From Planctomycetota bacterium (GTDB lineage: Bacteria > Planctomycetota > Brocadiia > Brocadiales > Bathyanammoxibiaceae), in assembly GCA_016209685.1 (NCBI GenBank), contig JACQVQ010000012.1, forward strand, positions 823 to 64,822: a stretch of 64,000 bases of DNA, read 5' to 3'. This document shows, piece by piece, positions 6,198 to 64,000 of the stretch (position 1 is the first letter of the stretch; every line of letters begins with the position of its first letter). The position numbers and the translations under genes were made by a program. The notes under the pieces are model-generated. The model saw only the letters and a list, made by a program, of their open reading frames with translations. It did no database searches and was not told the origin of the DNA.

Positions 6198-6262
6198 AGA
6201 ATTCAGTAGTCAGTAGTCAGAATTCAGGATATTCTTTATTCTGAATTCTGTATTCTGAGTTC
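6198..6262. repeat. heptamer-periodic hairpin element (CAGAATT/CAGTAGT flavour)
   Basis: The sequence GAATTCAGTAGTCAGTAGTCAGAATTCAGG is followed by a short loop and then TCTGAATTCTGTATTCTGAG. It lies between the hppA stop and the rsfS 5' end. Confidence 0.8.
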
Positions 6263-6653
6263 CGAGGTTAGAGGTACGTTAGAGCCTAAAGAAATCGCCC
6301 AGCTATTCGCCCAGATAGCCGATAATAAAAAGGCCGAGGACGTCGTCATCCTTGACCTGCGCAGGCTTACTTTCTTTACGGAGTTCTTTGTCATCTGCAG
6401 TGGTATAAATCCCCGGCAACTCCAGGCCATCGTTGATGAGATAGGGAAGGAGGCGAGGGAGCGGGGTCTATCCAAGCTAGCAATAGAAGGCTACCACGAG
6501 GCTAGATGGATACTCCTTGACTACGGCGACGTTATTATGCACCTCTTCAACAAAGAGGCCCGCCATTTTTATGACCTGGAACTCCTCTGGGGCGATGCCC
6601 CCAGGGTAAAGTGTCACCCTGCTAAGACGGCAGGAAAGACAGGCAACAAGTAA
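6252..6653 (+). CDS. rsfS: ribosomal silencing factor RsfS (start codon uncertain, no canonical start in frame)
   Basis: Hand translation: ...EPKEIAQLFAQIADNKKAEDVVILDLRRLTFFTEFFVICSG...WILLDYGDVIMHLF...FYDLELLW, typical RsfS/iojap. Stop TAA at 6651. Not in the ORF track because there is no ATG/GTG/TTG between stop 6216 and the conserved core. Confidence 0.75.
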   Translation: MLSSEVRGTLEPKEIAQLFAQIADNKKAEDVVILDLRRLTFFTEFFVICSGINPRQLQAIVDEIGKEARERGLSKLAIEGYHEARWILLDYGDVIMHLFNKEARHFYDLELLWGDAPRVKCHPAKTAGKTGNK

Positions 6654-6730
6654 CAAGAAACAGGTAACAGGCAACAGGTTACAGGAAAAGAAATTTTTAC
6701 CTGTCCCCTGTTTCCTGTCCCCTGTTTCCT
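6631..6730. repeat. heptamer-periodic hairpin element (AACAGGN flavour)
   Basis: AACAGGC AACAAGT AACAAGA AACAGGT AACAGGC AACAGGT TACAGGA, then CTGTCCC CTGTTTC CTGTCCC CTGTTTC. The left arm encodes the rsfS C-terminal residues. Confidence 0.8.
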
Positions 6731-6776
6731 AATTATTTGACAGGGAGGGGATTATATGCTATGGTTGCGTCTTAAG

Positions 6777-6858
6777 ATTCGGTTGTCGGCTACCAGTCAT
6801 TGGCTGACGGTACTCTGGAAGCCGAAGACCGATGCCTGAGGGCCGAAAACCGAAACCA
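6777..6858. repeat. heptamer-periodic hairpin element (CCGA flavour)
   Basis: ATTCGGT TGTCGGC TACCAGT ... AAGCCGA AGACCGA TGCCTGA GGGCCGA AAACCGA AACCAGA. Confidence 0.7.
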
Positions 6859-6875
6859 GATTTGGAGGTATAACC

Positions 6876-7475
6876 TTGAGAGCCTTGTCTTTACTCCTTT
6901 GCCTCCTTTTCTTCCAGGGGGTATCCCTGGCAGAAGAGCCTGAAAAATCTCCTCCTGAGCTCCCCGCTGTAGAGGCAGGAAAAGATGCTGTAGGGTTTAA
7001 AGATACCGCGGAGGCAGACATCCGTCAAGCTGTAGAAGAAATAGAAAAGGGGGCTGTAGAGGCCCCAGCAAAGCCACCAGTTGCAGAACCACCGGTGAAG
7101 GAGGAAAAGAAGAAACCAGAGGTTATCACCCCAGAGGCGCCTCCAGAGGAAAAGAGGAAAAAGGAGAAGTGGGTAGGTATTGAAGGGGGCTTTGCCCACA
7201 GAGGCGTTACCGTGCACCAGGGAAGCTATACCTTTGTTACTCAGTTTGACGGGGAGATGATAAATAACACAGGTATAAATTATAGTATAGTAAAGTTTGT
7301 ATTCGGTACCTATGATAGTAGGGGACGGGTAATCAAAGAGGAGTCCTTCCATATCATAGATTTTAAGAACGGAGGGATTATGCCCTTCAAGGGCACTGTA
7401 GTGGACGGTTTTAAGGAGATAGCAAGTTTCAAAATAAGACTCAAATCCGGGGTGGCTGCGGCTACGGCTAAATAA
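6876..7475 (+). CDS. secreted protein: signal peptide, PEK-rich linker, C-terminal beta-rich domain
   Basis: TTG start after GGAGG. MRALSLLLCLLFFQGVSLA signal, then a P/E/K linker. The C-terminal part (KFVFGTYDSRGRVI) vaguely resembles FxLYD-type domains. Confidence 0.6.
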   Translation: MRALSLLLCLLFFQGVSLAEEPEKSPPELPAVEAGKDAVGFKDTAEADIRQAVEEIEKGAVEAPAKPPVAEPPVKEEKKKPEVITPEAPPEEKRKKEKWVGIEGGFAHRGVTVHQGSYTFVTQFDGEMINNTGINYSIVKFVFGTYDSRGRVIKEESFHIIDFKNGGIMPFKGTVVDGFKEIASFKIRLKSGVAAATAK

Positions 7476-7493
7476 GGAGGAGGAAAAGGAGTT

Positions 7494-8198
7494 ATGACCA
7501 CCCATAGTGATTCCAGTGAAGAGGCCACTTCGTTATCTCAGCAGGAGATGGAAGGACAGGGTAGTAATCTGGCTCAGGTGGAAGGGTATCCGGACGGTAG
7601 CACTGCCGAGCGTCTGGAGGATGGTGGCAACGGTAAGCCCCGTACCTCAATGGTGCAGGACGAGCCTCAGGTCCCTGGAAAGGGTCCTGAGGAGATAAAG
7701 GTCTTGGTAGAGGCCCTACTCTTTGCCACTGACCAGCCATTGCCACTGAAGAGGTTGGTGGAGATATTGGGGGCTGAAAAGGGGTGCATCTCACAGGCGG
7801 TTGAGCTGCTACGCCAGGAGTATGAATCCACTCAGCGGGCCTTTCATGTGGAAGAGATTGCGGGAGGGTACCAACTCCTATCCAAGCCAGAATACCACCA
7901 GTGGATATGCCTCCTGGAAAAGAAGAATACCGAGAGCAAGCTCTCCCCGGCCGCATTGGAGACGCTGGCTATCATAGCCTATAAGCAACCCATCCTCCGC
8001 GCCGCCATTGAAGCCATTCGTGGCGTAGAATCCAGCCAGATGCTCAGGAGTCTTATAGAAAAAGGGTTGGTAAAGATTGTGGGTAAAGACGAGAGCCTGG
8101 GGCGCCCCCTCCTTTACGGAACCACCAAGAGATTCCTGGAGTACTTTGGTCTAAATTCCCTTAATGCCCTCCCCAGGACACAAGAACTCTCCAGTTAA
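7494..8198 (+). CDS. scpB: segregation and condensation protein B, with acidic N-terminal extension
   Basis: LVEALLFATDQPLPLKRLVEILG, LSPAALETLAIIAYKQPI, GRPLLYGTTKRFLEYFGL match ScpB winged-helix repeats. Strong GGAGG RBS. Confidence 0.85.
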   Translation: MTTHSDSSEEATSLSQQEMEGQGSNLAQVEGYPDGSTAERLEDGGNGKPRTSMVQDEPQVPGKGPEEIKVLVEALLFATDQPLPLKRLVEILGAEKGCISQAVELLRQEYESTQRAFHVEEIAGGYQLLSKPEYHQWICLLEKKNTESKLSPAALETLAIIAYKQPILRAAIEAIRGVESSQMLRSLIEKGLVKIVGKDESLGRPLLYGTTKRFLEYFGLNSLNALPRTQELSS

Positions 8199-8225
8199 AG
8201 ATGAACCTCCTTGCGGAGATGTAGA

Positions 8226-8336
8226 CCAGGGGTCAGGAATTAGAGAAAAGATTGTGTTGTAAATTGTAAATTGGAAATTTTAAATTTAAAATTTTCAATC
8301 TGCATTTTACAATCTCCCCTAACCCCCGCCTCCTGG
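8226..8336. repeat. nested heptamer-periodic hairpin (G-rich outer layer, TTGTAAA inner layer)
   Basis: Outer layer: CAGGGGT CAGGAAT TAGAGAAAAGATT ... CTCCCCT AACCCCC. Inner layer: TTGTAAA TTGTAAA TTGGAAA TTTTAAA ... TTTTCAA TCTGCAT TTTACAA. Confidence 0.8.
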
Positions 8337-8395
8337 AGTAATGGATAACTCCCCCGTACATGAAGTTGTTTATGTTTATGAGTAATGCAAAAGAC

Positions 8396-9487
8396 ATGAA
8401 CCTCCTTGAGCACACCCTCCTGAATATACAATCGATTAATACGGACTCGGGGAGGGAGGCCGGGAAGAGGTTCAAAGAGTTTGCAATACCGCAGGGAAGC
8501 CTGGGTAGGCTGGAAGAGTTGGCCACCTTTTACGCCTCCGTAAGGGGAATACCAGGGAGGGAAATAAGACATAAGGTGGTGTTTGTAATGGCAGGAGACC
8601 ACGGGGTGGCAGAAGAGGGGGTGAGCAGTTTCCCCCAGGAGGTGACCTGCCAGATGGTCAAGAACTTCCTTAGTGGAGGCGCCGCCATAAACGTCCTGGC
8701 CCACCACGCTGGGGCAAGGGTAGTAGTGGTAGATTGCGGTGTGGCAGGGCCCGTTGAATCCGCCATCGTCCATGGTGCTACTGCCGGGCTTAAGATAAAA
8801 AAGATAGGCCACGGTACGGGGAATATTGCCCATGGTCCTGCCATGACCAGGAAAGAGGCCATTAAGGCCCTGGAGGTGGGCATAGAGACCTTGGAGGAGG
8901 AACTGGAAAGGGGCGACGTGGAACTGGTAGCCACGGGTGATATGGGTATAGCCAATACGACTCCCAGTACCGCCATACTCGTGTCCATTACTGGGGTAGG
9001 GGTAGAAGAGGTGGTGGGCAGGGGCACCGGGATAGGGAGTGATGGACTAGCAAGGAAGGCAGAAGTAGTTAAGAGGGCCATAGAGGTCAACCGTCCGGAC
9101 CCGCAAGACCCCCTGGACGTCCTGGCAAAGACGGGCGGGTACGAGATTGGGGCCATTGCGGGCCTCTGTCTAGGAGCATCCCGTCACCGCCTCCCTGTCC
9201 TGCTGGACGGCTTTATCTCCACGGCGGGTGCCCTCCTTGCCTGTGCCTTAGAGCCAAAGGTAAGAGGTTATCTTATGGCCTCTCACCTGTCGGCAGAGAG
9301 GGGACACGCCCTGATGCTTCAAAAATTGGGTTTAAAGCCCATTTTAGACCTGGATATGCGTCTTGGGGAGGGTACTGGGGCCGTCCTGGCCATGCCCCTG
9401 GTAGAAGCCAGTGTCAAGCTCCTCCTTGAGATGGCCACCTTCAGCCAGGCTGGAGTCAGCCGGGCAGATGGTAGGGGCGGTTCGTAA
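8396..9487 (+). CDS. cobT: nicotinate-nucleotide--dimethylbenzimidazole phosphoribosyltransferase
   Basis: PQGSLGRLEELA, MAGDHGV, GDMGIANTTPSTA, LGEGTGA motifs. ATG 8396 preferred over 8360. The last codons are supplied by a REP palindrome. Confidence 0.9.
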   Translation: MNLLEHTLLNIQSINTDSGREAGKRFKEFAIPQGSLGRLEELATFYASVRGIPGREIRHKVVFVMAGDHGVAEEGVSSFPQEVTCQMVKNFLSGGAAINVLAHHAGARVVVVDCGVAGPVESAIVHGATAGLKIKKIGHGTGNIAHGPAMTRKEAIKALEVGIETLEEELERGDVELVATGDMGIANTTPSTAILVSITGVGVEEVVGRGTGIGSDGLARKAEVVKRAIEVNRPDPQDPLDVLAKTGGYEIGAIAGLCLGASRHRLPVLLDGFISTAGALLACALEPKVRGYLMASHLSAERGHALMLQKLGLKPILDLDMRLGEGTGAVLAMPLVEASVKLLLEMATFSQAGVSRADGRGGS

Positions 9488-9499
9488 ACCGCCCCCTAC
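9471..9499. repeat. GTAG-headed REP-like palindrome spanning the cobT stop codon
   Basis: GTAGGGGCGGTTCGTAAACCGCCCCCTAC. It encodes ..GRGGS-stop of cobT. Confidence 0.85.
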
Positions 9500-9500
9500 A

Positions 9501-9568
9501 AAGAATACAGAATTCAGAATATAGAATTCTTTTTATTCTGACTACTGACTTCTGAATTCTGAATACTG
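9501..9568. repeat. heptamer-periodic hairpin element (CAGAATT flavour)
   Basis: AAGAATACAGAATTCAGAATATAGAATTC ... TTCTGACTACTGACTTCTGAATTCTGAATACTG. Confidence 0.8.
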
Positions 9569-9577
9569 TTTATTTAT

Positions 9578-10648
9578 ATGAAACTAGCCCTCATTGGCCT
9601 CCCGAAGTGTGGAAAGACTACGGTGTTTAACGCCGTGGTGGGCACTCATAAAGAAAGGCAGACCCCTGCCCACTCCGCCGTGCAAAATATTGCCATGGTC
9701 AAGGTCCCCGATGAGCGGTTGGATTTCCTCCACAGCCTCTTTCCAGAGAAACGCTGTACCCCTGCCTCCATTGAACTGCTTGAGCTAGTAGGCATATTCC
9801 CCTCACCATGGGAGGTCCATGCAGAGTCTGCTACTGCCCTTGCCCTGCTAAGGGAAATGGACCTCATTGTGGAAGTAATCCGGACGTTTCCCGATGAGAC
9901 AACGCCACACCCCAAAGGCTCCCTTGACCCCGTCAGAGATCTCAGAGATATGGAGCAAGAACTCCTCCTTAACGACCTCCTGTCGGCAGAAAAGAGGATA
10001 GACAAACTCAAAAAGGCCATCACCAAACCCACTCCTACCCAGCAAAAAGATAAGGAGGAGTTGGAGGTACTCCTCAGGTGTAAAGAGGCCCTGGACAAGG
10101 GACAAGACGTCTCTACGTTACCCCTTACCACCACCCAGCAAAAACAGATAAAGGGATTCTGCTTCTTTACAGAAAAACCCAGGCTCGTGGTAGTCAACGT
10201 GGGGGAAAACCAGGTTAATAGAGAATTTAAGGACCTCCCCACCAAGGCCCAGGTACTGGCCTTCTGCGGCAAGTTGGAGTCAGAACTCCTCGGCCTGGAG
10301 GACAAGGAGAGGGCGGAGTTCCAGGGGGCCTGGGGTATATCCGAGCCTGCAGGCCTAAGGCTCCTAAAGGCCTGTTACAAGACCCTCAACCTGGTCTCTT
10401 TTTATACCATGGAAGGGGAGGAGATAAGGGTCTGGTCCATACCCCGCGGAGAAACGGCTCTTACCGCCGCAGGGAAGATCCATTCCGATATAGCCAGGGG
10501 CTTCATTAAGGCCGAGGTAATGAGCTTAGCAGACCTTAAAACCCTGGGTTCCATAAAAGAGGTCAAGGCCCATGGGAAACTCCACGTGGTGGGCAAGGAG
10601 CATATCGTCCAGGACGGTGATATAATTACCTTCCGATTCCATGTGTGA
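9578..10648 (+). CDS. ychF: YchF-type ribosome-binding ATPase/GTPase
   Basis: GLPKCGKTTVFNA P-loop, central coiled insert, C-terminal TGS-like end (HIVQDGDIITFRF). Confidence 0.85.
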   Translation: MKLALIGLPKCGKTTVFNAVVGTHKERQTPAHSAVQNIAMVKVPDERLDFLHSLFPEKRCTPASIELLELVGIFPSPWEVHAESATALALLREMDLIVEVIRTFPDETTPHPKGSLDPVRDLRDMEQELLLNDLLSAEKRIDKLKKAITKPTPTQQKDKEELEVLLRCKEALDKGQDVSTLPLTTTQQKQIKGFCFFTEKPRLVVVNVGENQVNREFKDLPTKAQVLAFCGKLESELLGLEDKERAEFQGAWGISEPAGLRLLKACYKTLNLVSFYTMEGEEIRVWSIPRGETALTAAGKIHSDIARGFIKAEVMSLADLKTLGSIKEVKAHGKLHVVGKEHIVQDGDIITFRFHV

Positions 10649-10656
10649 TAAGAAAT

Positions 10657-10740
10657 AATTACAAATTTCATATTACAAATTTCAAATTTGGAATTTGATT
10701 TTAATTTGTAATTTGCAATCAGAAATTTGCAATTAGATTT
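10657..10740. repeat. heptamer-periodic hairpin element (AATTTCA/TTGCAAT flavour)
   Basis: AATTACA AATTTCA TATTACA AATTTCA AATTTGG AATTTGA TTTTAAT TTGTAAT TTGCAAT CAGAAAT TTGCAAT TAGATTT. Confidence 0.85.
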
Positions 10741-10742
10741 TG

Positions 10743-11987
10743 ATGAAGACCGTAGAGATTATCACCACGGGGAGTGAACTTATACAGGGGGAGGTAACCA
10801 ATACCAATGCCACCTATATCTCTAGGGAACTAACTAGAAAAGGGTTCGGTGTACTCTACCACACCACTGTGGGAGACGAGGTGGTATCTCTAGGCGGGGT
10901 TATTGAAAGGGCCATGGAGAGGGTGGATTTAGTTATAATCACAGGAGGTCTTGGGCCTACCAGGGATGACGTCACCAGGGAGGCCGTGGCCCTGGCCTGC
11001 CACAGAAAATTAGCCCTGAATAAGGAGTCCCAGGCACACATCCAGGAACTCTTCCGTTGCCGCCACCAGGAGATGCCCGAATCCAACCTCCGTCAGGCCC
11101 TACTGCCCGAAGGAGCCACCGTAATCCCCAACGGGATGGGCACCGCCCCAGGCTTTGCCCTCTTCCAGAAGGGTAGAGAGATTATTTGCCTCCCGGGGGT
11201 ACCAGAGGAGATGAAAAAGATGTTCCAGGAATGGGTAATCCCCCACCTGGAGAGGCTAATACCCGGCAAGAGGCATACCCTCCTGAGGAAATTACACGTA
11301 TTTGGCCTCCCCGAGGCCTTGGTGGGAGAAAAGATTGCCTACCTGATGGCACCAGAGGCCAACCCCAGGGCCGGCACAATGGTCCGTGAGGGCATAATCA
11401 CACTCCGTCTCCAGGCAGAGGCAGGGGAGGAGGCCAGGGCAAAAAACATGCTGGATGGGGCCGAGGTGGAGGTACGACGGCTACTGGGGGAGGCCGTCTT
11501 TGGAGTAGAGGATGAGACCCTAGAAGACGCCGCAGCCTCTCTCCTTATGAAGCACGGCCTCACCATTACCGTGGCCGAGTCCTGCACGGGGGGGCTTGTG
11601 TGCGACCTCCTTACTAACGTTCCAGGGATTTCTAAACACCTCCTGGAAGGAGTGGTAGTTTACACAGTGAGGGCCAAGTCCCTCCTCACTGGTCTCCCTG
11701 AAGGACGTATAGAAGAGATGGGCATTGTAACCCCGGAGATAACCAAACTCCTGGCCTCGTCTGTAAGGGAGAGGACCGGGGCAGACATCGGCCTGGCCGT
11801 AACGGGCGTGGCAGGGCCTACAAGCCCAAGTCCCGATATATCCGTTGGGCTGGTATACATCGCCCTTGCCACTAAAAAGGACTGCACCGTAAAAGAATTC
11901 CGCTTCAGTGGGACAAGGAAGTGGATAAAACTCCTCGCCGCCAAACATGCGTTGAATATGGTAAGGGTACGTCTCTTAAAGTGGTAG
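10743..11987 (+). CDS. cinA: CinA-family protein (MoCF-binding domain plus nicotinamide-nucleotide amidohydrolase domain)
   Basis: N-terminal MogA/MoaB-like ITTGSELIQGEVTNTN...ITGGLGPTRDD. C-terminal CinA domain TVAESCTGG...GVAGP. Confidence 0.85.
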   Translation: MKTVEIITTGSELIQGEVTNTNATYISRELTRKGFGVLYHTTVGDEVVSLGGVIERAMERVDLVIITGGLGPTRDDVTREAVALACHRKLALNKESQAHIQELFRCRHQEMPESNLRQALLPEGATVIPNGMGTAPGFALFQKGREIICLPGVPEEMKKMFQEWVIPHLERLIPGKRHTLLRKLHVFGLPEALVGEKIAYLMAPEANPRAGTMVREGIITLRLQAEAGEEARAKNMLDGAEVEVRRLLGEAVFGVEDETLEDAAASLLMKHGLTITVAESCTGGLVCDLLTNVPGISKHLLEGVVVYTVRAKSLLTGLPEGRIEEMGIVTPEITKLLASSVRERTGADIGLAVTGVAGPTSPSPDISVGLVYIALATKKDCTVKEFRFSGTRKWIKLLAAKHALNMVRVRLLKW

Positions 11988-12293
11988 AAAGAAGGGCATG
12001 TTTAAAAGGCATTACACTGCAAAGATATTTAATAGAGGTCTCTGAAAAATGCCCAGCGTGTCATTCTGAACCGCCAAAGGCAGGGAAACTGCACCACGGA
12101 AAATCAACCACTTACGTTCGCTCAAATTGCCTAAATGAGACTTTTTTTAGGGTTGGGCAACAGCCTCTCCATATACTCCACACCGCAATCCGCAATTCCT
12201 GTTTACAATCTCCCCTGGTAGTGTTAATATCCTTCACGGTTTGGGGCCTCAGCCCCCAGGTTGAAAATCTGCCTCGGACGGGGCGAATTCAAA

Positions 12294-13334
12294 ATGAACT
12301 ACACCCTCAGAGAGATATGCACTATAACAGGTGGGACCCTGGTGGGGGACGGCGACACCAGGATAACCGGGGTGGCAAGCCTTGAGGGGGCAAGACAAGG
12401 GGATATTACCTTTGTGAAGGGGGAGGAGTTCATAGAAAAGGCCCTCAAGACCAGGGCCTCTGCCCTCGTGGTCCACAGGGAGATAAAGGAGTTTAAATCC
12501 GCCCCTTCGCTACGCTCAAGGGCAGGCTTGGGCGGACAGATAGTCGTAAAGGACCCCTTCCTTGCATTTGTAAAAATACTGGAGGTCTTCTCGCAGGAGA
12601 GGGGCAAACGTCACAGGGGTATTCACCCCCCGACCCTGGTGGCAAAGACTGCTACTATCGGCAGGGAGGTCTCCATCGGGGCCTACTCTGTTATTGAAGA
12701 GGGGGCCGTGATTGGTGACAGGGCCACCCTCTATCCCATGGTCTATATAGGACACAATACGAAGGTAGGAGAAGATACGCTCATTTATCCCATGGTCTCC
12801 ATCAGAGAAGAGGTCTCCATAGGTAAACGGGTGATAATCCATTCCGGTACTACCATCGGCGGGGACGGCTTCGGCTATTTACAGGTAGAGGGACGCCACG
12901 TAAAGATACCACAGGTAGGCACCATTGAGATTGGAGACGACGTGGAGATAGGCTGTAACGTTACCATAGCCAGGGCAACCCTGGATAAGACGGTAATAGC
13001 CAGGGGGGTAAAGATTGATAACCACTCCCATATTGCCCACAATGTCATTATTGGCGAGGATACCATGCTCATCGCCTACGCCAAGATTGCCGGGGGTGCG
13101 GTGATTGGTAAGAACGTAATGATTGCCGAGGACGTGGGCATTACAGACCACGCCACTATTGGAGATAACTGCGTGATTGGGGGCGGGTCAAACGTCTATA
13201 AGAGCCTACCTCCTGGCTCGGTGGTCTGGGGCTCCCCCGCAAAGCCCATAATGGAAGAAAAGAGGCTTCAAGTCTTGCTCCGTAAATTACCGAAAATGTG
13301 GGAGACATTAAAAAGGTTTGGTAACCTCCGATAA
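12294..13334 (+). CDS. lpxD: UDP-3-O-acylglucosamine N-acyltransferase
   Basis: N-terminal LpxD domain (GDGDTRITGVASLEGARQGDITFV) plus a long left-handed beta-helix of hexapeptide repeats. The 3' end is duplicated in diverged form at 13889-14026. Confidence 0.9.
   Translation: MNYTLREICTITGGTLVGDGDTRITGVASLEGARQGDITFVKGEEFIEKALKTRASALVVHREIKEFKSAPSLRSRAGLGGQIVVKDPFLAFVKILEVFSQERGKRHRGIHPPTLVAKTATIGREVSIGAYSVIEEGAVIGDRATLYPMVYIGHNTKVGEDTLIYPMVSIREEVSIGKRVIIHSGTTIGGDGFGYLQVEGRHVKIPQVGTIEIGDDVEIGCNVTIARATLDKTVIARGVKIDNHSHIAHNVIIGEDTMLIAYAKIAGGAVIGKNVMIAEDVGITDHATIGDNCVIGGGSNVYKSLPPGSVVWGSPAKPIMEEKRLQVLLRKLPKMWETLKRFGNLR
12498..12536. repeat. 39-nt element with inverted termini, in frame within lpxD
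   Basis: TCCGCCC-cttcgctacgctcaagggcaggctt-GGGCGGA encodes SAPSLRSRAGLGG. Its core resembles ccttcggcaggctcagggcag at 15507. Confidence 0.4.
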
Positions 13335-13340
13335 TAAATA

Positions 13341-13562
13341 ATGGAAATATACCTGAGCAGGCATGCAAGAAGGCAAATGAAGTGGAGAAAAATCTCCGAG
13401 GAAGAAATTAAAGACACCGTTCTCCATCCAGAAGAAATAGAAGATTCAATAAAAGGCCGAAAGAATGCATTCAAACGTGTCGGACAAAAATGGCTGAAGG
13501 TGACATTCGTAAAGGAAAATGATAAAATAATCATAATTACGGTAATTGATAAAAACAAATAG
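13341..13562 (+). CDS. DUF4258-family protein (putative toxin component)
   Basis: MEIYLSRHARRQMKWRKISEEEIKDTVLHPE matches the H-A-x-x-R-M-x-x-R-x-I-S N-terminus typical of DUF4258. Confidence 0.65.
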   Translation: MEIYLSRHARRQMKWRKISEEEIKDTVLHPEEIEDSIKGRKNAFKRVGQKWLKVTFVKENDKIIIITVIDKNK

Positions 13563-13570
13563 GAGAAACA

Positions 13571-13816
13571 ATGAAGATTGAATATGACAGAGAAGTAGAT
13601 GCACTTTATATCAGGATACAAGAAAAAGAGGTTTCACGAACCAAAGAAGTCGCAGAGGGCGTAAACCTTGATATAGATGAGGAGGGAAAAATTATAGGTC
13701 TTGAGATTGTAGGTGCTACTGAAAGATACAGCCTGAAGGATATTTTAAACATCTCAACCGAAAACTTGATACTTGAAGAACTCCCCAAGCAAAAAACAGT
13801 AAGCAGTAAGGACTAA
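13571..13816 (+). CDS. DUF2283-family protein (putative antitoxin component)
   Basis: MKIEYDREVDALYIRIQ...NLDIDEEGKIIGLEIVGA matches the DUF2283 pattern. It lies 8 nt after the DUF4258 gene. Confidence 0.65.
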   Translation: MKIEYDREVDALYIRIQEKEVSRTKEVAEGVNLDIDEEGKIIGLEIVGATERYSLKDILNISTENLILEELPKQKTVSSKD

Positions 13817-13818
13817 GC

Positions 13819-13877
13819 AGGATTTCGGATTTGGAATTTATAAATTCACAATTCCAAATTCCAAATTCGCAATTTCT
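13819..13877. repeat. heptamer-periodic hairpin element (GGATTTC/CCAAATT flavour)
   Basis: GGATTTCGGATTTGGAATTTATAAATTCACAATTCCAAATTCCAAATTCGCAATTTC. Confidence 0.8.
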
Positions 13878-13888
13878 CCACAATCCCA

Positions 13889-14026
13889 GTCGTATGGGGC
13901 TCCCCAGCCAAACCTATAATGGAGGAAAAACGACTCCAGGCCCTATTAAAGAAACTGCCAGAGATGCGAGAGACACTGAAGGAGATTGCAAGGGTCTTAA
14001 AGGAAAAAGGGCTTATTGGGAATTAG
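13889..14026 (+). pseudogene. lpxD: displaced 3' end of lpxD (45 codons plus stop, no 5' part)
   Basis: Hand translation VVWGSPAKPIMEEKRLQALLKKLPEMRETLKEIARVLKEKGLIGN-stop aligns with the lpxD C-terminus VVWGSPAKPIMEEKRLQVLLRKLPKMWETLKRFGNLR-stop. Confidence 0.8.
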
Positions 14027-14037
14027 TAATTTTTTTC

Positions 14038-14072
14038 TCTACTCCCTACTCCCTAATCCCTAGCCCCTAGTT
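14038..14072. repeat. C-rich heptamer run (single arm)
   Basis: TTTTTTTCTCT ACTCCCT ACTCCCT AATCCCT AGCCCCT AG. This is the complement of the TAGGGGN ... AGAGAAAAAAA type. Confidence 0.7.
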
Positions 14073-15206: not shown

Positions 15207-15336
15207 GACTCATCCTCTCTCTAGCCTTGGGTTATACAACAAAAGATTTAGTGTTTTATCCATTAGCTATACTATCGTAAATTTATATATCAAAATCATT
15301 AAAAATCAAGCACCAAAATTTTATGCCAAGAAGAAA

Positions 15337-15364
15337 TTGACAAAGCGATTTTATCGGTTAATCT
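15337..15364 (+). promoter_or_regulatory. possible sigma70-type promoter upstream of the MBL hydrolase gene
   Basis: TTGACA (15337-15342), 16-nt spacer, TAATCT (15359-15364). Confidence 0.35.
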
Positions 15365-15399
15365 AATCAATGGGGTGGCGCCCTAACCAGGGGTCAGGT

Positions 15400-15464
15400 G
15401 TAGCCGCAGTCCGCCTGAGGCGGATTAGCCTGCGAAATGAACGCAACCTAAAGGTTGCGGCTAC
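15400..15464. repeat. composite GTAG...CTAC palindromic element
   Basis: GTAGCCGCA-gt-CCGCCTGAGGCGG-attagcctgcgaaatgaacgcaacctaaaggt-TGCGGCTAC. The inner CCGCCTGAGGCGG hairpin recurs at 42638, 59746 and 61243. Confidence 0.75.
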
Positions 15465-15476
15465 TGATATACCCTT

Positions 15477-16328: not shown

Positions 16329-16343
16329 AAATCTACTAATAAG

Positions 16344-53271: not shown

Positions 53272-53299
53272 GTAGGGGCGAACGGCCGTTCGCCCCTAC
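53272..53299. repeat. GTAG-headed REP-like palindrome (third copy of GCGAACGGCCGTTCGC unit)
   Basis: GTAGGGGCGAACGGCCGTTCGCCCCTAC. Confidence 0.9.
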
Positions 53300-53303
53300 C
53301 CGG

Positions 53304-54419: not shown

Positions 54420-54437
54420 TTTCGCCTCCTTGGAGGA

Positions 54438-54500
54438 ATTGTAAAATGAAGATTGAAAATTTTAAATTTAAAATTTCCAATTTTCAATTTTCAATTTTAT
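54438..54500. repeat. heptamer-periodic hairpin element (TTGAAAA/TTTTCAA flavour)
   Basis: ATTGTAAAATGAAGATTGAAAATTTTAAATTTAAAATTTCCAATTTTCAATTTTCAATTTT. Confidence 0.8.
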
Positions 54501-56594
54501 TTAACCTGGCGCCAGTGTTATCCTGGCATCAATGGCTACGGTGCCTCCGGGTAAGACGGCCAGGGGGTTTATGTCTAACTCCAGTATCTCGGTGAAATCC
54601 ATGACCAGTTGGGAGAGCCTCTGAAGGGCCTCTACCACGGCCTTCAGGTCCACCGGACGCTCTCCCCTGGCACCCTTCAGTACGGCGTAGGCCCTCGTCT
54701 CCTTTATCATCTCCCATGCCTCCGCATCGGTGATGGGCGCCACCCTGAAGGAGACGTCTCTTAGTACCTCCACGTATATCCCACCGAGGCCGAACATGAG
54801 TAGAGGTCCAAACTGAGGGTCTTTCACGGCGCCCAGGATGACCTCCTTTCCTCCCCTCACCATCTCCTGTACAAAGGCCCCATGGATATGGGCCTCTGGC
54901 ATCCTCTTCCTCACCCTTTCCATCATCTCCTCAAAGGCCCTCCCCGCCTCTTCCGGGCTGTTGAGGCCCAGTCTCACCCCACCTACGTCTGATTTGTGGA
55001 GGATATCGGGAGAGGCGACCTTTAGCACCACTGGACAACCCACCTCCTGGGCCGTCCTGACGGCCGAATCCTTATCGGTAACAAGGAAACTCCTGGGCAG
55101 TGAAAACCCATAGGCGGCGATGACCTGTCTTGCCTCCGCCTCCGCCAGGTTAAGGTGCCCCTCCTGTCGGGCCTTCCGTAATACCTCTTCCACCGTCCGC
55201 CTGTCTCCGCTAAAGTCCAATGGACGCTCCGTAGACCTTTCCATCCACTGTCTCTGGAGGTGCATGGCCTCCAGCACGGCTACTGCCCTCTCGGGAAAGG
55301 GATAATTAGGCACCTGATGCTGGGCTAGTACCTCCACTGCCGTCTCCATGGTCGGCCCCCCCATGAAAGTGGCTATTACTGTCTTACTCCTAAACTTCTT
55401 GGAAAGTTCTCCAACCACCCTGGCCACCTCCTCCCCCTTTATGACTGCCTGAGGGGCATTTATGGCAATCACCCCCTGTACGCCTTCGTCCTTGAGTACC
55501 TTTTCCATGGCCACACGATATATGTCTTCCTTAACGCCCCCCGTAATATCCACGGGGTTATATAAACTGGCAATAGGGGGGAGACATGCCCTCAGGCTAT
55601 CTACGGTCTCTCTGGAGAAGGAGGCCATGCGTAGGCTGGAACGTTCAACGGCATCGGCGGCCAGGATGGCTGGCCCACCCGCATTGGAAAAGATGGCCAC
55701 CTGAGGCCCCACGGGAATCTCCTGGGTGCTCAAGGCATGGGCTACGCCGAAGAGGTCTTCCAGGGTCTCTGCCCTCAGGATACCTGACTGTTTGAAAGCG
55801 GCCCTGAAGGCGTTGTCCGAGCCGGCGAGACTGCCTGTGTGAGAGCCTACGGCCCTGGCACCCGCTCCTGTGCTCCCTGACTTGATGATAACCACAGGCT
55901 TCTTCCTGGTCACCCGCCTTGCTACCTCCATAAAGGCCCTGCCGTCCTTTATCCCTTCTATGTAGCCGAGGATTACCCGGCACTCCGGGTCATCAGCGAA
56001 GGCCTCCAGGAGGTCCACCTCGCTTATGTCCATATTGTTCCCCATACTTACAAACTTGGAGAAGCCCATGTGTTGGGTCTGCGCCCAGTCCAGGATGGCG
56101 GTACAGATGGCCCCAGACTGGGAGAAGAAGGCGATGTCACCCCTTGGGGGAGGATTGGCGGCAAAGGTGGCATTGAGTCTTTGATAGGTGTTAATCACCC
56201 CAAGACAGTTAGGACCTATGACCTTGATACGGTGACTCCTTGCCAGCCTGGCTAGTTCCCTCTCCCTTTCGGCCCCCTCCCTGCCGCTCTCCTTAAAACC
56301 ACCGCTTATTATAACGGCGGAGTCTATGCCCTTCTGTCCACACTCATCTATGGCCTGGAGGCAGAGTTCGGCGGGGAGTACCAGTACTGCCAGTTCCACG
56401 CTATCCTCTACCGCCTTCACACCAGGGTAGGCCTTCAGGCCCAGGATACTGTCTGCCTTGGGGTTGATTGGATAGACCTTTCCCGGGAAGCCGTACTGGA
56501 GGATATTCTTTAAGATGCCGTGTCCGAGTTTGTATTCCTCCCTGGCCGCCCCTATTACTGCTATGGAGCGTGGCTGGAAGAAGTGTTCTAGCAT
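54501..56594 (-). CDS. acd: ADP-forming acetyl-CoA synthetase (fused CoA-binding/ligase and ATP-grasp domains)
   Basis: 697 aa. N-terminal PRSIAVIGA...GFPGKVYPINPK CoA-binding domain, a succinyl-CoA-synthetase-like middle region, and a C-terminal ATP-grasp (VVLKVASPDILHKSDVGGV). Confidence 0.85.
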   Translation of the reverse strand: MLEHFFQPRSIAVIGAAREEYKLGHGILKNILQYGFPGKVYPINPKADSILGLKAYPGVKAVEDSVELAVLVLPAELCLQAIDECGQKGIDSAVIISGGFKESGREGAERERELARLARSHRIKVIGPNCLGVINTYQRLNATFAANPPPRGDIAFFSQSGAICTAILDWAQTQHMGFSKFVSMGNNMDISEVDLLEAFADDPECRVILGYIEGIKDGRAFMEVARRVTRKKPVVIIKSGSTGAGARAVGSHTGSLAGSDNAFRAAFKQSGILRAETLEDLFGVAHALSTQEIPVGPQVAIFSNAGGPAILAADAVERSSLRMASFSRETVDSLRACLPPIASLYNPVDITGGVKEDIYRVAMEKVLKDEGVQGVIAINAPQAVIKGEEVARVVGELSKKFRSKTVIATFMGGPTMETAVEVLAQHQVPNYPFPERAVAVLEAMHLQRQWMERSTERPLDFSGDRRTVEEVLRKARQEGHLNLAEAEARQVIAAYGFSLPRSFLVTDKDSAVRTAQEVGCPVVLKVASPDILHKSDVGGVRLGLNSPEEAGRAFEEMMERVRKRMPEAHIHGAFVQEMVRGGKEVILGAVKDPQFGPLLMFGLGGIYVEVLRDVSFRVAPITDAEAWEMIKETRAYAVLKGARGERPVDLKAVVEALQRLSQLVMDFTEILELDINPLAVLPGGTVAIDARITLAPG

Positions 56595-56617
56595 GGCTGT
56601 CGGGACCTCCTACCTCT

Positions 56618-56715
56618 GAATGCGGAGTGCGGAATGCAGAATGCGGAATTAAATTCCGCACTCCGCACTCCCCATTCCGCACTCGGAACGCATTCCGAAT
56701 TCCGCACTTTGAATG
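56618..56715. repeat. heptamer-periodic hairpin element (GAATGCG flavour), 14 units
   Basis: GAATGCG GAGTGCG GAATGCA GAATGCG GAATTAA ATTCCGC ACTCCGC ACTCCCC ATTCCGC ACTCGGA ACGCATT CCGAATT CCGCACT TTGAATG. Confidence 0.9.
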
Positions 56716-57671: not shown

Positions 57672-57815
57672 CTGATTACTGATTGCTGATTAGAGCTTAC
57701 ACCTGGGTACGTAGGCTTTCAAGTGCAAAAAGGGGGCTAGGGATTAGGGAAATCCAAATTCCAAAGCTCAAATGTCGAAAATCAGCAATCAGCTATCAGG
57801 AATCAGCAAGCTGAC
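57672..57815. repeat. heptamer-periodic hairpin (CTGATTR arms) enclosing G-rich and AAATCCA units
   Basis: CTGATTACTGATTGCTGATTAGAGC ... GGGGCTAGGGATTAGGGAAATCCAAATTCCAAAGC ... AATCAGCAATCAGCTATCAGGAATCAGCAAG. Confidence 0.75.
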
Positions 57816-59731: not shown

Positions 59732-59769
59732 GTAGGGGCACGTTGTCCGCCTTAGGCGGATGCCCCTAC
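59732..59769. repeat. 38-nt composite REP (GTAG head, nested CCGCC..GGCGG hairpin)
   Basis: GTAGGGGCACGTTGTCCGCCTAAGGCGGATGCCCCTAC. Confidence 0.9.
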
Positions 59770-59792
59770 ATTAAAGGCCCGTAGGAGAAAAC

Positions 59793-61232: not shown

Positions 61233-61270
61233 GTAGGGGCATCCGCCTCAGGCGGACAACGTGCCCCTAC
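61233..61270. repeat. 38-nt composite REP, inverted copy of 59732-59769
   Basis: GTAGGGGCATCCGCCTCAGGCGGACAACGTGCCCCTAC, the reverse complement of the upstream copy with one loop difference. Confidence 0.9.
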
Positions 61271-61375: not shown

Positions 61376-61406
61376 GTACAAGGGCGACCCGCCGGGTCGC
61401 CCCTAC
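61376..61406. repeat. REP-like palindrome
   Basis: GTACAAGGGCGACCCGCCGGGTCGCCCCTAC. Confidence 0.7.
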
Positions 61407-61426
61407 AGAGACTCCCACGGCTTATC

Positions 61427-61549
61427 TTTTGTGTCTTTCAGAGCACGTTCTAGCGTGCGAGATGTAGCGTGCTAGCTTGCCTGGCACGCTTTGCCTGACA
61501 CGTTTTGGCGTGCGAGACGAGCTCGCACGCTACAGTTTTTGTGTCTTTC
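61427..61549. mobile_element. second MITE-like palindromic element, flanked by a 13-nt direct duplication
   Basis: Direct repeats TTTTGTGTCTTTC at 61427-61439 and 61537-61549. The internal TAGCGTGCGAG ... CGTGCGAGACGAGCTCGCACGCTACA shares its right end with the nuoB/nuoC element. Confidence 0.7.
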
Positions 61550-61563
61550 GGAGGTTACCTGGT

Positions 61564-63846
61564 ATGATGAAAGAGACGATAAGCAGACAGGTTAAGAAAA
61601 GTATCATCCTGAAACAACTCGCACTGACTATCCCGTTAAACGCCCTTTTCGTAGCCCTCCTGGTCCTGGGGTTTTATACCGTATTTACACTGAGGGGGGA
61701 CGCAACAGGCATAAATTATGCAGGTCAGCTACGCTCCCGCTCTCATGAACTGGCCTTACAAATCACTGAATACCCTGCCCTGCAGGGGGGTGCAAGGGAT
61801 GGTGCCCGCAGTGCCATACTTGGCCAGATGGATGAATTTGAGAAGATTTTGTACGGCCTGAGAGACGGCAATAAGGCCTTGGGCCTTAGGGGTTTCAAGA
61901 TGCCCCCAAAAGGGGCGGATTTTAGTTACAATGACCCCTGGTGGCAATTTGATAGACACGTTGAAAACTATAACCGGAGGATGAAGCCTTTAATCCTGCA
62001 CGTCCTGGAATCCCCTAACCAGGAAGAGGCAAAGGAGTCCCTTAAGATATATAGTAAAAATGTCTCTGCCTTCGTAGGTGATTCGGACAGCACGGTACGT
62101 CTGCTGCAATCGTTGTCGGAAAAAAAGATATCATGGTTCAAGAATACAGAGTTTGTACTCCTGGGCCTGTTTCTGGGTATATTAGGGGGTTCTTTCTTTC
62201 TGTCCACAGTCTTCATACAAAGACCATTTCTGGACGTACTTAAAGGGACTACGGCCTTCAGCCGTGGGGACCTAAACTACAGGATACCTGTTAGACGCAG
62301 GGACGAGATGGGCATCCTGGCCAGTAGCTTTAACGATATGGCTACGGCCCTTAAAAGTAAGGTGGCGGAGGTACAGGCCACCCGTGACTTACTCAATGAG
62401 GTGTTAGGTGGCATAGGCTGTCTTGTAAGGATTGTAGACCCTAAGGCACACAGGGTAACTTTTCAGAGTAAATCTCTACAGGCCATCTACCCCGAGGGGT
62501 TAAAACGTCATTGCTACACCATATTGGGGAGAGAGACGGCATGTGAACGCTGTACCAGTACGGAGGCTATTGAAAAGAGGAAGGATTTCTGCAAAGAAGA
62601 GGAGGCGGCCACCGGGGGTGTCTTTTACGAGATACATTCCTTCCCCTTTCCTAACCCCGATGGCAGTATAACTAGTGCCATTGAGGTGATAAGAGACATT
62701 ACGGCCCGTAAGAAGGCGGAATGGGAAGTCCAGACGAGCCAGAACCTGGTCAACGAGGTGTTAGGTAGCATAGGCTGTTTTGTAAGGATAGTAAACCCTA
62801 AGACTCACAAGGTAATCTTTCAAAATAGACCCCTGGAGGCCGTCTACCCCCAGGGGCTGGAACGTCATTGCTACACCTTATTGGGGAGTGAGACGCCGTG
62901 TGAACGCTGTACCAGCATGGAGGCTATTGAAAAGAGGAAGGATTTCTGCAAAGAGGAGGAGGCGGCCAATGGGGGTGTCTTTTACGAGATACATTCCTTC
63001 CCCTTCCCCAACCCAGATGGCAGTATAACTACTGCCATTGAGGTGATAAGGGATATTACGTCTCGCAAGAAGATGGAGGGGGAGTTGGAGGACTCCAGGA
63101 TGCGACTGCTGGAGTCTCAAAAGATGGTCACCGTTGGGAACCTTACCCTCGGTATAGCCCATCATATAAATAATCCCCTGTCAGGGATAAACATGTCTGC
63201 CGACATCCTCCTTAAAGAGATAGATGGGGCAAAAGAGTGTGTCCATTCAGAAGACCTTATAAGCCACCTGAGGAGGATAAAAGAGGCAGGGGGGCGTTGT
63301 GAGATGGTGATGAAAGACCTCCTCAATATATCCAGGTTGCCCAAATTAAGGAAACTACCTACTCACGTGAACGAGGCCGTGGAGCACGCCCTAAACGTGA
63401 TGGTTCCTCAACTGGAACTTTCAAAAATCAAGCTGGTAAAAGAGCTTTCTGATACGGCCCCCAAGATCCTTGGCAGTCGTAGCCAGTTGGAAACGGTGTT
63501 TATGAACATCATCTCTGGTGCCATAAACGAGATGCCTGAAGGGGGTACGCTGACTGTCAGGACGGAGTACCTCTCCAGTGAAGACAAGGTTGAAGTAACC
63601 ATCGCAGATACAGGCCGTGGAATCAATAAAAATGACTTACCCTCACTCTTTGACCCCTACTTTATCCTCAAGATTCGGCCATCTATTAAGGGTACGGGGC
63701 TGGAGCTATCCCTTGCCCAGTTGACTGTTCAATCCCATGGGGGCACCATAGAGGCAGATTCAGAGGAGGGGAAGGGTACGACCTTCGGGGTGAAACTACC
63801 TGCCTGTAAGGAGACCAGCCCGGCGGGAGTAGGGAGTAGGGGGTAG
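61564..63846 (+). CDS. membrane sensor histidine kinase (PilJ/NarX-like periplasmic domain, HAMP, two Cys-rich PAS modules, HisKA, HATPase)
   Basis: ATG 61564 follows GGAGG. INYAGQLRSRSHELA sensor box, HAMP (RRDEMGILASSFNDMA), duplicated PAS, H-box IAHHINNPLSGI, DTGRGI and GTGLEL. Confidence 0.85.
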   Translation: MMKETISRQVKKSIILKQLALTIPLNALFVALLVLGFYTVFTLRGDATGINYAGQLRSRSHELALQITEYPALQGGARDGARSAILGQMDEFEKILYGLRDGNKALGLRGFKMPPKGADFSYNDPWWQFDRHVENYNRRMKPLILHVLESPNQEEAKESLKIYSKNVSAFVGDSDSTVRLLQSLSEKKISWFKNTEFVLLGLFLGILGGSFFLSTVFIQRPFLDVLKGTTAFSRGDLNYRIPVRRRDEMGILASSFNDMATALKSKVAEVQATRDLLNEVLGGIGCLVRIVDPKAHRVTFQSKSLQAIYPEGLKRHCYTILGRETACERCTSTEAIEKRKDFCKEEEAATGGVFYEIHSFPFPNPDGSITSAIEVIRDITARKKAEWEVQTSQNLVNEVLGSIGCFVRIVNPKTHKVIFQNRPLEAVYPQGLERHCYTLLGSETPCERCTSMEAIEKRKDFCKEEEAANGGVFYEIHSFPFPNPDGSITTAIEVIRDITSRKKMEGELEDSRMRLLESQKMVTVGNLTLGIAHHINNPLSGINMSADILLKEIDGAKECVHSEDLISHLRRIKEAGGRCEMVMKDLLNISRLPKLRKLPTHVNEAVEHALNVMVPQLELSKIKLVKELSDTAPKILGSRSQLETVFMNIISGAINEMPEGGTLTVRTEYLSSEDKVEVTIADTGRGINKNDLPSLFDPYFILKIRPSIKGTGLELSLAQLTVQSHGGTIEADSEEGKGTTFGVKLPACKETSPAGVGSRG
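62401..63114 (+). repeat. tandem duplication (2 x 357 nt) of a PAS-module coding segment
   Basis: Unit 1 starts at GTGTTAGGTGGCATAGGCTGT (62401) and unit 2 at GTGTTAGGTAGCATAGGCTGT (62758). Long near-identical stretches follow (GAACGCTGTACCAG...GAGGCTATTGAAAAGAGGAAGGATTTCTGCAAAGA). Confidence 0.9.
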
Positions 63847-64000
63847 GGACCAGGAATTGCGGATTTCGGATTGCGGAATGTGGATTTAAAAATTCGCAAT
63901 TCCAAATTTATAGTGAACTCTACGTAGTTCACTATTCGCAATTCTTCTACACCCAACCCTCTACACTCTAGTCCTTAGCCCCCAGTTTCTACTACCCATC
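63846..64000. repeat. heptamer-periodic nested hairpin element running to the window edge
   Basis: GTAGGGA CCAGGAA TTGCGGA TTTCGGA TTGCGGA ATGTGGA TTTAAAA ATTCGCA ATTCCAA ... ATTCGCA ATTCTTC TACACCC AACCCTC TACACTC TAGTCCT TAGCCCC. Confidence 0.8.

Follow-up and report, generated by a model that had tools for sequence, protein, structure and literature searches.

Hairpin elements with degenerate heptanucleotide arms, at gene junctions of a Brocadiales-type planctomycete

Few long tandem repeats in bacteria are as common as heptanucleotide repeats. In the survey of Mrazek (2007), as relayed by PMC4679880, they form the most abundant category of long simple sequence repeat (LSSR) in most of the prokaryotic genomes covered, and polymerase slippage is the cause proposed. 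Particular families have also been described. Xanthomonas genomes each contain 70-75 convergent pairs of GGGAATC arrays, able to form stem-loops (Rehm 2015, PMC4692102). Direct repeats of TAACTGA occur, upstream of start codons, in marine Beggiatoaceae, cyanobacteria and Bacteroidetes, with 169 direct sets and only one inverted (MacGregor 2015, PMC4679880). Here, we describe ~23 loci where degenerate heptamers are arrayed, mostly as the two arms of a hairpin, in 64 kb of a contig from a groundwater planctomycete (JACQVQ010000012.1, positions 823 to 64,822). We refer to this whole stretch, of 64,000 nucleotides, as the window; all element positions are window coordinates. The elements are a variant, dense, many-flavoured and apparently mobile, of the heptanucleotide repeats already known from bacteria (STRR/LSSR type), a flavour being a type of repeat unit.

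The host was placed using its closest homologues. Its YchF protein is 88% identical to that of a groundwater genome, 'Planctomycetota bacterium nzgw511', and 66% identical to that of a Brocadiales genome. Similarly, the ADP-forming acetyl-CoA synthetase (ACS) is 84% identical to that of 'Ca. Hypogeohydataceae bacterium YC41'. This similarity places the host among Brocadiales-type planctomycetes, near 'Ca. Hypogeohydataceae', a family proposed for aquifer anammox-related bacteria (bioRxiv 10.1101/2023.04.27.538623).

Periodicity, anatomy and placement of the elements

The evidence for a 7-nt period was read on the window. Tandem Repeats Finder returned ~45 rows with a period of 7 or 14, spanning positions 6198-63886. 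We also scanned for regions where identity at lag k is at least 70% across 35 nt. With k=7, 16 regions were located; k=4-6 and k=8-12 gave none. Similarly, no lag-7 region was found, at the same strict setting, in 20 dinucleotide shuffles of the window. With looser settings, the number of regions rose to 20-28 for k=7 and was 0-2 at the other lags. Lag-7 identity was 0.377 in intergenic DNA, compared to 0.244 in coding DNA, and lag-14 identity was 0.346.

At 17 of the ~23 loci (Table 1), there are two inverted arrays that fold into imperfect hairpins of 40-160 nt. Compared to dinucleotide shuffles, 16 of these hairpins have fold z-scores between -3.2 and -7.2. For the remaining one, element E, the score is only -2.4 on the + strand, with a fold energy of -26.7 kcal/mol for the minus strand. 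A single array is present at each of five loci (14027, 20634, 28822, 31506 and 50737), and the locus at 63820 is truncated by the end of the window. An initial annotation, made from the sequence by eye, had proposed a 7-nt register with inverted arms, and had parsed the units at 10657, 56618 and 23211. The register and arms are real, and the three parses are correct as read. The same annotation also placed elements in nearly every intergenic gap. This was an overstatement; 19 of the 43 gaps of at least 25 nt are occupied, and no element lies before position 6198.

Two kinds of unit, read in the sense of the 5' arm, cover most arrays. The first is YAG plus four bases (CAGAATT, CAGTAGT, CAGAAGT, CAGGGGA, TAGGGGG, CAGGTAA, CAGCAAT and AAGTCCA). 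The second ends in GAAT or AAAT (TGCAAAT, TTGGAAT, CGGAATG and CCAAATG). Flavours intergrade within arrays. For example, element I passes through TAGGGGG, TAGGGGA, TAGGAAC, TAGAATT, AAGAATT and CAGAAGT. Composite elements (I, O and C) have outer units that are G-rich and inner units that are AT-rich, or CAGAATT. In element C, the G-rich outer arms (8222-8253 and 8317-8345) enclose an AT-rich TTGTAAA hairpin (8254-8316). Between arms, there are point changes and also differences of whole units. The TAGGGGN flavour is present at 14027, 23211, 28822, 31325, 47795 and 50737, and most flavours are without G runs. The unit listing, and comparison of families, bear out the earlier observation that six flavours recur at unlinked loci. 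We considered a shared YAG-N4 unit, with HutP-like NAG spacing, as a universal rule. This was rejected. Many units do begin with CAG or TAG, but the AT-rich, AAATCCA and GAATGCG flavours, and many arrays in metagenomes, have no YAG.

The arms have a polarity. In 16 of 18 window hairpins, the more purine-rich arm is the 5' arm, and G occupies the 5' side in 97 stem pairs, compared to 49 for the reverse. Note that a palindrome reads alike on both strands. Hence, this polarity belongs to the element itself and involves no choice of strand. Element V has its arms in reverse polarity, with a G-rich array between them.

Position with respect to genes is also far from random. For 37 metagenome hairpins, among the matches listed in the scan described below, 73% start 0-25 nt past the stop codon of an open reading frame of at least 100 aa, compared to 6.7% of random positions. 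About 18 of the 23 window loci, as tabulated, are placed in the same way. Several stop codons fall inside the first units; that of pdxA is inside the third unit of element I. Several elements end 0-8 nt ahead of the next start codon, and elements often fill entire operon junctions. The neighbours include housekeeping genes (pyrophosphatase/rsfS; scpB, cobT, ychF and cinA; pdxA/ksgA; nuoD/nuoE; nuoM-like and nuoN-like genes; pfkB, the ACS gene and a DRTGG-domain gene).

Evidence for insertion, copying and turnover

Relatives of the host provide a direct comparison for some junctions. Gene order in nzgw511 is shared with window positions 1-12012, at ~77-82% nucleotide identity. Elements A and E are present in nzgw511, the former as a longer orthologous copy and the latter as a copy 84% identical and one unit shorter. 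Elements B, C and D are missing. At the B site, there is ordinary sequence. At the C site, scpB and cobT abut, with a single copy of AGATGAACCTCCTTG and no gap. At the D site, 8 nt separate the stop codon from the next start. In a second relative (L008), none of the elements were found, and ychF and cinA overlap. Five others (L087-L091), with ACS proteins 80-84% identical to that of the window, have pfkB and the ACS gene 2 nt apart, and the ACS and DRTGG genes 1-31 nt apart. The window carries elements U and T at these positions. Overall, 4 of the 9 window elements whose junctions are covered by relatives recur in any of them. In these comparisons, the elements behave as insertions.

The density of elements differs in the same manner. 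The window has 20 period-7 regions, compared to 0-2 per ~20 kb for relatives, and unrelated genomes totalling 1.26 Mb have 2. We conclude that the lineage underwent a burst of heptamer elements. On either side of element C, there is a copy of the cobT start (8199-8215 and 8393-8410), in direct orientation, giving a target duplication of 13-17 nt. The equivalent duplication at E is about 9 nt, and none is clear at D, I, O or U. Since the duplication is variable in length, and unseen at other sites, a transposase with a fixed stagger does not fit.

Distant loci in the window share irregular sequence. The right arms of elements I and O are ~94% identical over 48 irregular nt, and element O is a copy of element I. 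Elements C, N and T form one family (D2), with a 21/22-nt apex common to C and T. Similarly, the apex TAGGGAAAAAGAT is common to L, Q and R.

Particular slots have changed content. The pfkB/ACS slot, occupied by element U, has four states: a GAATGCG hairpin in the window, a (GTAGCTA)n...(CTACTGN)n hairpin in L214, a 406-nt cluster of small palindromes in L215, and no gap in more distant relatives. In L214, the non-repeat flanks are the same as in the window and the heptamer flavour is different, despite 97% identity between the ACS proteins. Four TCCGCC hairpins are found in the 406-nt gap of L215. The ACS/DRTGG slot, occupied by element T, has an AT-rich hairpin in both the window and L215, whose ACS proteins are 86% identical. 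There is a GTAG palindrome in L214, and a TCCGC hairpin in L087 and L088; overall, L214 and L087-L092 have other hairpins or nothing. An ortholog of element S, with its flavour unchanged, lies in L215. Whole units distinguish one orthologous copy from another. In the comparison of T between the window and L215, a clustered patch of changes in the 5' arm is mirrored by a complementary one in the 3' arm, displaced by 7 nt. These patches, from a single sequence pair, resemble a possible templated change.

Arrays of one flavour extend well beyond this lineage. An exact scan of metagenome contigs, for three copies of CAGWAKT followed by CAG, found such arrays (CAGAAGT, CAGTAGT or CAGAATT) at a minimum of 120 loci, in contigs of 28-70% GC. 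Among the matches listed, the array forms the 5' hairpin arm at 46 loci and the 3' arm at 5. Four contigs among these matches (L105, L148, L173 and L184) are rich in HIP1. Such richness marks cyanobacteria, and we take all four to be cyanobacterial. A different contig (L209, 68% GC, 12.3 kb) contains 12 heptamer regions of multiple flavours. The named homologues closest to it, at ~60-65% identity, are from Pyrinomonadaceae/Acidobacteriota, indicating an Acidobacteriota-like contig. Several metagenome spacers, for example in L142, hold a GC hairpin and then a T run.

Two further ideas were rejected using the metagenome contigs. For flavours other than CAGWAKT, sharing across phyla with the window was not significant (5 unit classes, 2.3 expected). 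A conserved core between the arms was not supported either; spacers are 3-91 nt long and mostly unrelated, only those of L094 and L121 being shared. Two contigs are unusual in their repeats. In L104 (1811-2994), inverted heptamer arrays in two nested pairs (GTGACGG/CGTCACC and CTGACTT/CAGAAGT) surround a core of ~740 nt, resembling a larger unit with heptamer-array ends. Contig L117 (12.3 kb, GC 0.43) is very repeat-dense, with 16 period-7 regions and repeats of period 6, 8 and 9.

Table 1. Heptamer elements in the window. The z-score compares folding with dinucleotide shuffles.
Element	Positions	Repeat structure	z-score	Context
A	6198-6268	CAGTAGT/CAGAATT hairpin	-3.6	begins 1 nt past H+/Na+-pyrophosphatase stop, reaches rsfS start region
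B	6636-6735	CAGGNAA hairpin	-5.4	5' arm overlaps final codons and stop of rsfS
C	8216-8392	177-nt insertion	-5.2	between scpB and cobT
D	9498-9572	CAGAATT hairpin	-5.2	between cobT and ychF
E	10653-10738	AAATTTC/TTGCAAT hairpin		fills ychF-cinA gap
F	13790-13880	CAGTAAG, then GGATTTC/GAATTCC hairpin	-3.9	overlaps DUF2283 gene end
G	14027-14076	single C-rich array (TAGGGAN on minus strand); no hairpin		at FBP aldolase/phosphatase stop
H	20634-20696	single AAAGTCY array		GTAG palindrome 20600-20627 just upstream; ends at riboflavin synthase start
I	23211-23346	composite hairpin grading from TAGGGGN to CAGAATT	-7.2	pdxA/ksgA gap
J	28822-28881	single CCCCTAN array		between convergent genes
K	29915-29972	CAGAATT hairpin	-3.9	fills gap between HaoB-like gene and moaA
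L	31325-31412	G-rich YAGGGRN hairpin, apex TAGAGAAAAAGATT	-4.4	divergent intergenic region
M	31506-31545	single CTGTCTA array		abuts 5' end of tRNA-Pro (31548-31626)
N	32509-32575	AT-rich TTGTAAA hairpin	-4.4	between convergent genes, guaB side
O	36641-36795	composite TAGGGGN/CAGAATT hairpin, AAAGTCC apex	-4.5	3 nt past nuoN-like stop
P	38289-38352	CAGTTNT/CTGACAA hairpin	-3.2	within 3' end of nuoM-like gene
Q	47795-47875	CAGGGAN hairpin	-4.4	fills nuoD-nuoE gap
R	50737-50782	single G-rich array ending in TAGGGAAAAAGAAT		small-hairpin cluster after, to ~50960
S	52640-52790	AAATCCA/AAATGCC hairpin, outer CAGTAAG/CTGCCTA units	-5.9	
T	54437-54507	AT-rich hairpin	-3.2	at ADP-forming ACS stop codon
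U	56612-56712	GAATGCG hairpin	-5.7	between pfkB and ACS gene
V	57672-57812	CTGATTA (57672-57695) and AATCAGC (57775-57812) arms, ~100 nt apart	-4.5	divergent intergenic region
W	63820-64000	GGGAGTA, then GGATTGC arrays; partner arm partly in window		histidine kinase gene end

The window also contains GTAG-headed palindromes. Perfect, REP-like copies with the consensus GTAGGGGCGAACGGCCGTTCGCCCCTAC are at 19758-19789, 20600-20631 and 53272-53303. Variants are at 9471-9500, where the palindrome precedes element D and spans the cobT stop codon, and at 18705-18735, 59733-59770 and 61233-61260. Others are intragenic (16777-16803 in a TPR gene, 35852-35883 in priA, and 52058-52089). GTAG REPs inside genes have been reported, in replication and repair genes (PMC3733652). 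Some families of short dispersed hairpins are likewise partly intragenic. Those with TCCGCCTGAGGCGGA are at 3952, 15406, 42633, 53687 and 59742, those with CCCTGCACC..GGTGCAGGG are at 15529, 50862 and 61110, and there is a cluster of small hairpins at 50783-50960.

Several genes beside the elements have peculiarities of their own. In the rsfS-like frame (6243-6662), none of the codons ATG, GTG and TTG is present from the in-frame stop upstream to the conserved N-terminus. This frame apparently starts in or beside element A, possibly at a rare start codon. In the FBP aldolase/phosphatase gene, 25 nt (14215-14239) are missing from an NCBI contig (L001) that is otherwise 99.7% identical; this deletion would shift the reading frame. 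Repeats with periods of 9, 12 and 24 nt (CCACCACC-type, + strand) lie at 29972-30133, in the 3' end of the HaoB-like gene (29971-31263, - strand). A 357-nt tandem duplication (62393-63072, 1.9 copies, 87% identical) lies inside a sensor histidine kinase gene.

Explanations for the elements

We favour, with moderate confidence, palindromic insertion elements with degenerate tandem heptanucleotide arms. These would spread by copy-and-paste at the level of DNA, through 7-nt slippage and template switching, and would serve, or be tolerated, as REP-like 3' stem-loops. Arrays would lengthen and shorten through replication slippage in steps of 7 nt. Arm complementarity would be maintained by intrastrand (quasi-palindrome) template switching. 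Template switching between loci would allow elements to reach new junctions and replace old copies. Note that switching of this sort would need no dedicated transposase and would yield target duplications of variable length. Insertions would survive mainly 3' of genes because they do least harm there. Once transcribed, they may act as 3' or inter-cistronic stem-loops, with effects on read-through, on how the following gene is translated, or on mRNA 3'-end stability. For both window and metagenome hairpins, there was no bias between sense and antisense fold energies. Since the sense and antisense RNAs fold equally stably, on average, we see no indication that one transcribed strand is under selection, and RNA-level selection of that kind was rejected. 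This would count for an action on DNA rather than on one RNA strand.

Several points weigh against our proposal. Transposition and template switching are deduced from alignments, no event having been seen directly. Target duplications are clear at two sites only (C and E), and the signature of templated change comes from one pairwise comparison. Elements S and T keep their flavour across genomes with ACS proteins only 86% identical, and the T slot continues to hold one hairpin or another. Both observations fit a selected function. Slippage alone does not explain the CAGWAKT unit in contigs of 28-70% GC. More generally, a copy-and-paste model leaves the arm polarity, the placement beside stop codons, and the recurrence of CAGWAKT in very different organisms unexplained. 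The fixed polarity, which a neutral DNA-level model does not predict, hints at selection or at a directional mechanism.

Selection of the elements as RNA is possible, though we consider it unlikely. Elements could be landing pads for a protein (cold-shock-domain or S1-type) that binds single-stranded nucleic acid and covers ~7 nt, or bidirectional terminators or attenuators, kept for 3'-end formation or translation of the next gene. Such roles would suit positions directly past stop codons, and the short distances from several elements to the next start. Similarly, a purine/G-rich 5' arm with a pyrimidine-rich 3' arm is expected for an A-tract/hairpin/U-rich design read either way. The GC hairpins and T runs in metagenome spacers, and the persistence of S and T in L215, argue in the same direction. 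Indeed, binding by S1, Csp or CsrA has been proposed for TAACTGA repeats (MacGregor 2015, PMC4679880). Conversely, the lack of any stability bias gives no sign of G-U tolerance on a transcribed strand. Flavours are also too different for one sequence-specific binder, and close relatives manage with gaps of a few nt at most of the same junctions. A consensus terminator scan of positions 5001-25000 flagged GTAG palindromes and assorted short stem-loops, mostly intragenic. It flagged no heptamer hairpin, and we reject canonical intrinsic terminators (GC-rich stem, 3-8 nt loop, T run) for this region. Known RNA families were also rejected; at the gathering score, Rfam 15 matched only tRNA-Pro (31548-31623) and no heptamer element.

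A bolder idea, tentative and also unlikely in our estimation, is that heptamer-array hairpins belong together as a single class of element, as yet undescribed, that spans phyla and follows rules of its own. Conserved machinery covering 7 nt, such as a single-strand binding or nicking protein, would produce or use them. The rules may include placement no more than ~25 nt past stop codons, a CAG/G-rich array on the 5' side with a CTG/C-rich array on the 3' side, whole-module exchange within a slot, and bursts in single lineages. If true, sister genomes that are loaded or unloaded with elements would make the 7-nt preference of bacterial repeats directly testable. Candidate pairs are the window's genome with nzgw511 or YC41, and loaded with unloaded Pyrinomonadaceae.

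We think it improbable that the elements derive from REPs or REPINs moved by RAYT (Y1/HUH) proteins. According to this explanation, arrays are iterated REP heads (GTAGGGG, GTAGTCA and GTAGCTA) produced by repeated cleavage and joining at GTAG. The window is indeed full of GTAG-headed perfect palindromes (GTAGGGGCGAACGGCCGTTCGCCCCTAC), some of them intragenic as for GTAG REPs (PMC3733652). Such palindromes adjoin the arrays at D and H, replace an array in the same slot in L214, and several flavours have GTAG in every unit. Furthermore, RAYT-type Y1_Tnp genes occur in related Brocadiales, including 'Ca. Avalokitesvara rifleensis' (L092:699-1373(-), L093:1099-1773(-), L216:88-651 and L217:125-790). 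These genes are flanked by small hairpins of the same kinds, and interrupted by them in L092. The flanking hairpins include GACAGACC-TTTA-GGTCTGTC, which is also in the window near 50790. Against this, most flavours (CAGAATT, CAGAAGT, TTGTAAA, AAATCCA and GAATGCG) are without GTAG, and CAGWAKT arrays are found in many unrelated organisms. No RAYT gene lies within the window; such genes were found only in relatives. A 231-aa protein at the RAYT position in L087 was considered as a hidden RAYT and rejected, having no similarity. To our knowledge, Y1 transposition in the IS200/IS605 family makes no target duplication, which is at odds with the 13-17 nt at site C.

Local growth, where each array and its inverted partner arose in place by slippage and nothing was copied between sites, is weakened by these results and very improbable. 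The gradual drift of units suits this explanation, as in element I (TAGGGGG to TAGGAAC to TAGAATT to CAGAAGT), as do whole-unit differences between orthologous copies. Slippage has also been proposed for heptamer repeats in general (Mrazek 2007, as relayed by PMC4679880). However, long irregular blocks and non-periodic apex motifs are common to distant loci. At most sites, the relatives have junctions of a few nt, or overlapping genes, and so no seed. Flavour at the U slot has, moreover, changed completely between genomes with ACS proteins 97% identical. Finally, although repeat arrays often break or confuse short-read assemblies, and many metagenome matches are at contig ends, an assembly or sequencing artefact is refuted because the arrays are identical in six independent assemblies of one population (one NCBI genome assembly and five Logan assemblies), and some are at orthologous positions in different genomes. 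There are no differences in unit number among the six assemblies, and we also reject hypervariable contingency loci.

Whatever their origin, the elements provide a natural experiment. A loaded genome (20 regions in 64 kb) can be compared to sisters of the same gene order (0-2 per 20 kb), so that inserted, empty and replaced sites are readable. Our results join REP-type palindromic insertion behaviour to a strong preference for the stop codon side of genes, and to an arm polarity that neutral slippage does not predict. In practical terms, short-read assemblies of anammox-related genomes from aquifers probably break at the elements, which can be mis-called as small open reading frames or extend gene ends. 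They may also affect the expression of core operons (nuo and pdxA-ksgA).

Comparison with known repeat systems

The STRR repeats of heterocystous cyanobacteria have the units CCCCAGT (STRR1), TTGGTCA (STRR2) and CAACAGT (STRR3). None of these is present in the window as a dimer, and there is only one chance 11-mer. The window does share, with STRR and LSSR, tandem 7-nt units that are mostly intergenic, as the excess of lag-7 identity outside coding DNA indicates. So far as the LSSR survey is relayed, it also shares abundance in some lineages with near-absence in others, and enrichment for period 7 only. An LSSR consists of tandem units of 5-11 nt in a run longer than chance for the genome. The 16-28 lag-7 regions of the window, compared to none in 20 shuffles and 0-2 at other lags, are of this type. 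Near-perfect iteration of one unit is a further mark of the LSSR type. In the window, array match levels are 67-100% and units drift along the array, being degenerate rather than simple. CAGWAKT arrays, some as hairpins, in the HIP1-rich contigs taken as cyanobacterial are a further likeness. The differences are the host, which is a Brocadiales-type planctomycete and no cyanobacterium, the predominance of paired inverted arrays, the many flavours, and the drift of units within arrays.

The initial annotation had named STRR-type repeats as precedent and had doubted a cyanobacterial host; it was correct in both respects, the nearest genomes being Planctomycetota/Brocadiales. Its view that no standard feature class applies is not supported, because heptanucleotide repeats are a known class, and a leading one in the LSSR survey as relayed. 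Nor is there support for the inverted-arm, multi-flavour design as a distinguishing mark, given the Xanthomonas convergent arrays, CAGWAKT hairpins in metagenomes, and the multi-flavour contig L209. The remark that the mechanism of the 7-nt register is unknown still stands, here and in the literature found, where we saw no mechanism for the register and no tested function of heptanucleotide repeats. Literature searches for the units (CAGAAGT and others) returned nothing relevant, and those for heptamer repeats in anammox bacteria returned nothing.

The GGGAATC repeats of Xanthomonas, and GGGGA(C/T)T repeats of Nostoc, are G-rich heptamer arrays found mainly between co-oriented genes and less than 50 bp from gene ends (PMC4692102). 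Our TAGGGGN/TAGGGAT flavour is similar in composition. The paired convergent arrays of Rehm (2015), which form an inverted repeat, have counterparts at 17 of the ~23 window loci. However, there are no GGGAATC, GGGGACT or GGGGATT arrays in the window. The published genomes have one flavour each, compared to at least six here. Published emphasis is on G-quadruplexes from four units, whereas G runs are absent from most window flavours. That work (PMC4692102) does not describe copying between loci or slot turnover, both seen for the window elements. TAACTGA repeats resemble the window elements in being intergenic heptamer arrays near start codons, with the same unit in distant phyla and a function that is unknown (PMC4679880). 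They differ in having a single unit, almost always as direct repeats, and the window has no TAACTGA array.

REP and REPIN sequences are intergenic, apart from some intragenic copies. Two inverted halves make up each hairpin, of 60-150 nt, and the sequences are found at gene 3' ends and inside operons (PMC3733652, PMC3337134). The window elements are similar in niche and size, also consist of inverted halves forming one hairpin, are intergenic, and vary strongly in copy number between relatives; true GTAG palindromes co-occur with them. Conversely, the halves of REPs are short palindromes conserved within a family, the unit being an imperfect palindrome of 20-40 nt with a GTAG or CGTC tag. Heptamer arms are not of this form, being 7-nt periodic, not self-complementary, and mostly without GTAG. 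Like MITEs, the window elements are short non-coding insertions with inverted ends, and their presence or absence differs among relatives. Unlike MITEs, they have no target duplication of fixed length and no conserved ends, and the whole element is array, with no core. Compared to these systems, what is new in the window is the host lineage, the density of elements, the many flavours, the turnover of slots, and the fixed polarity of the arms.

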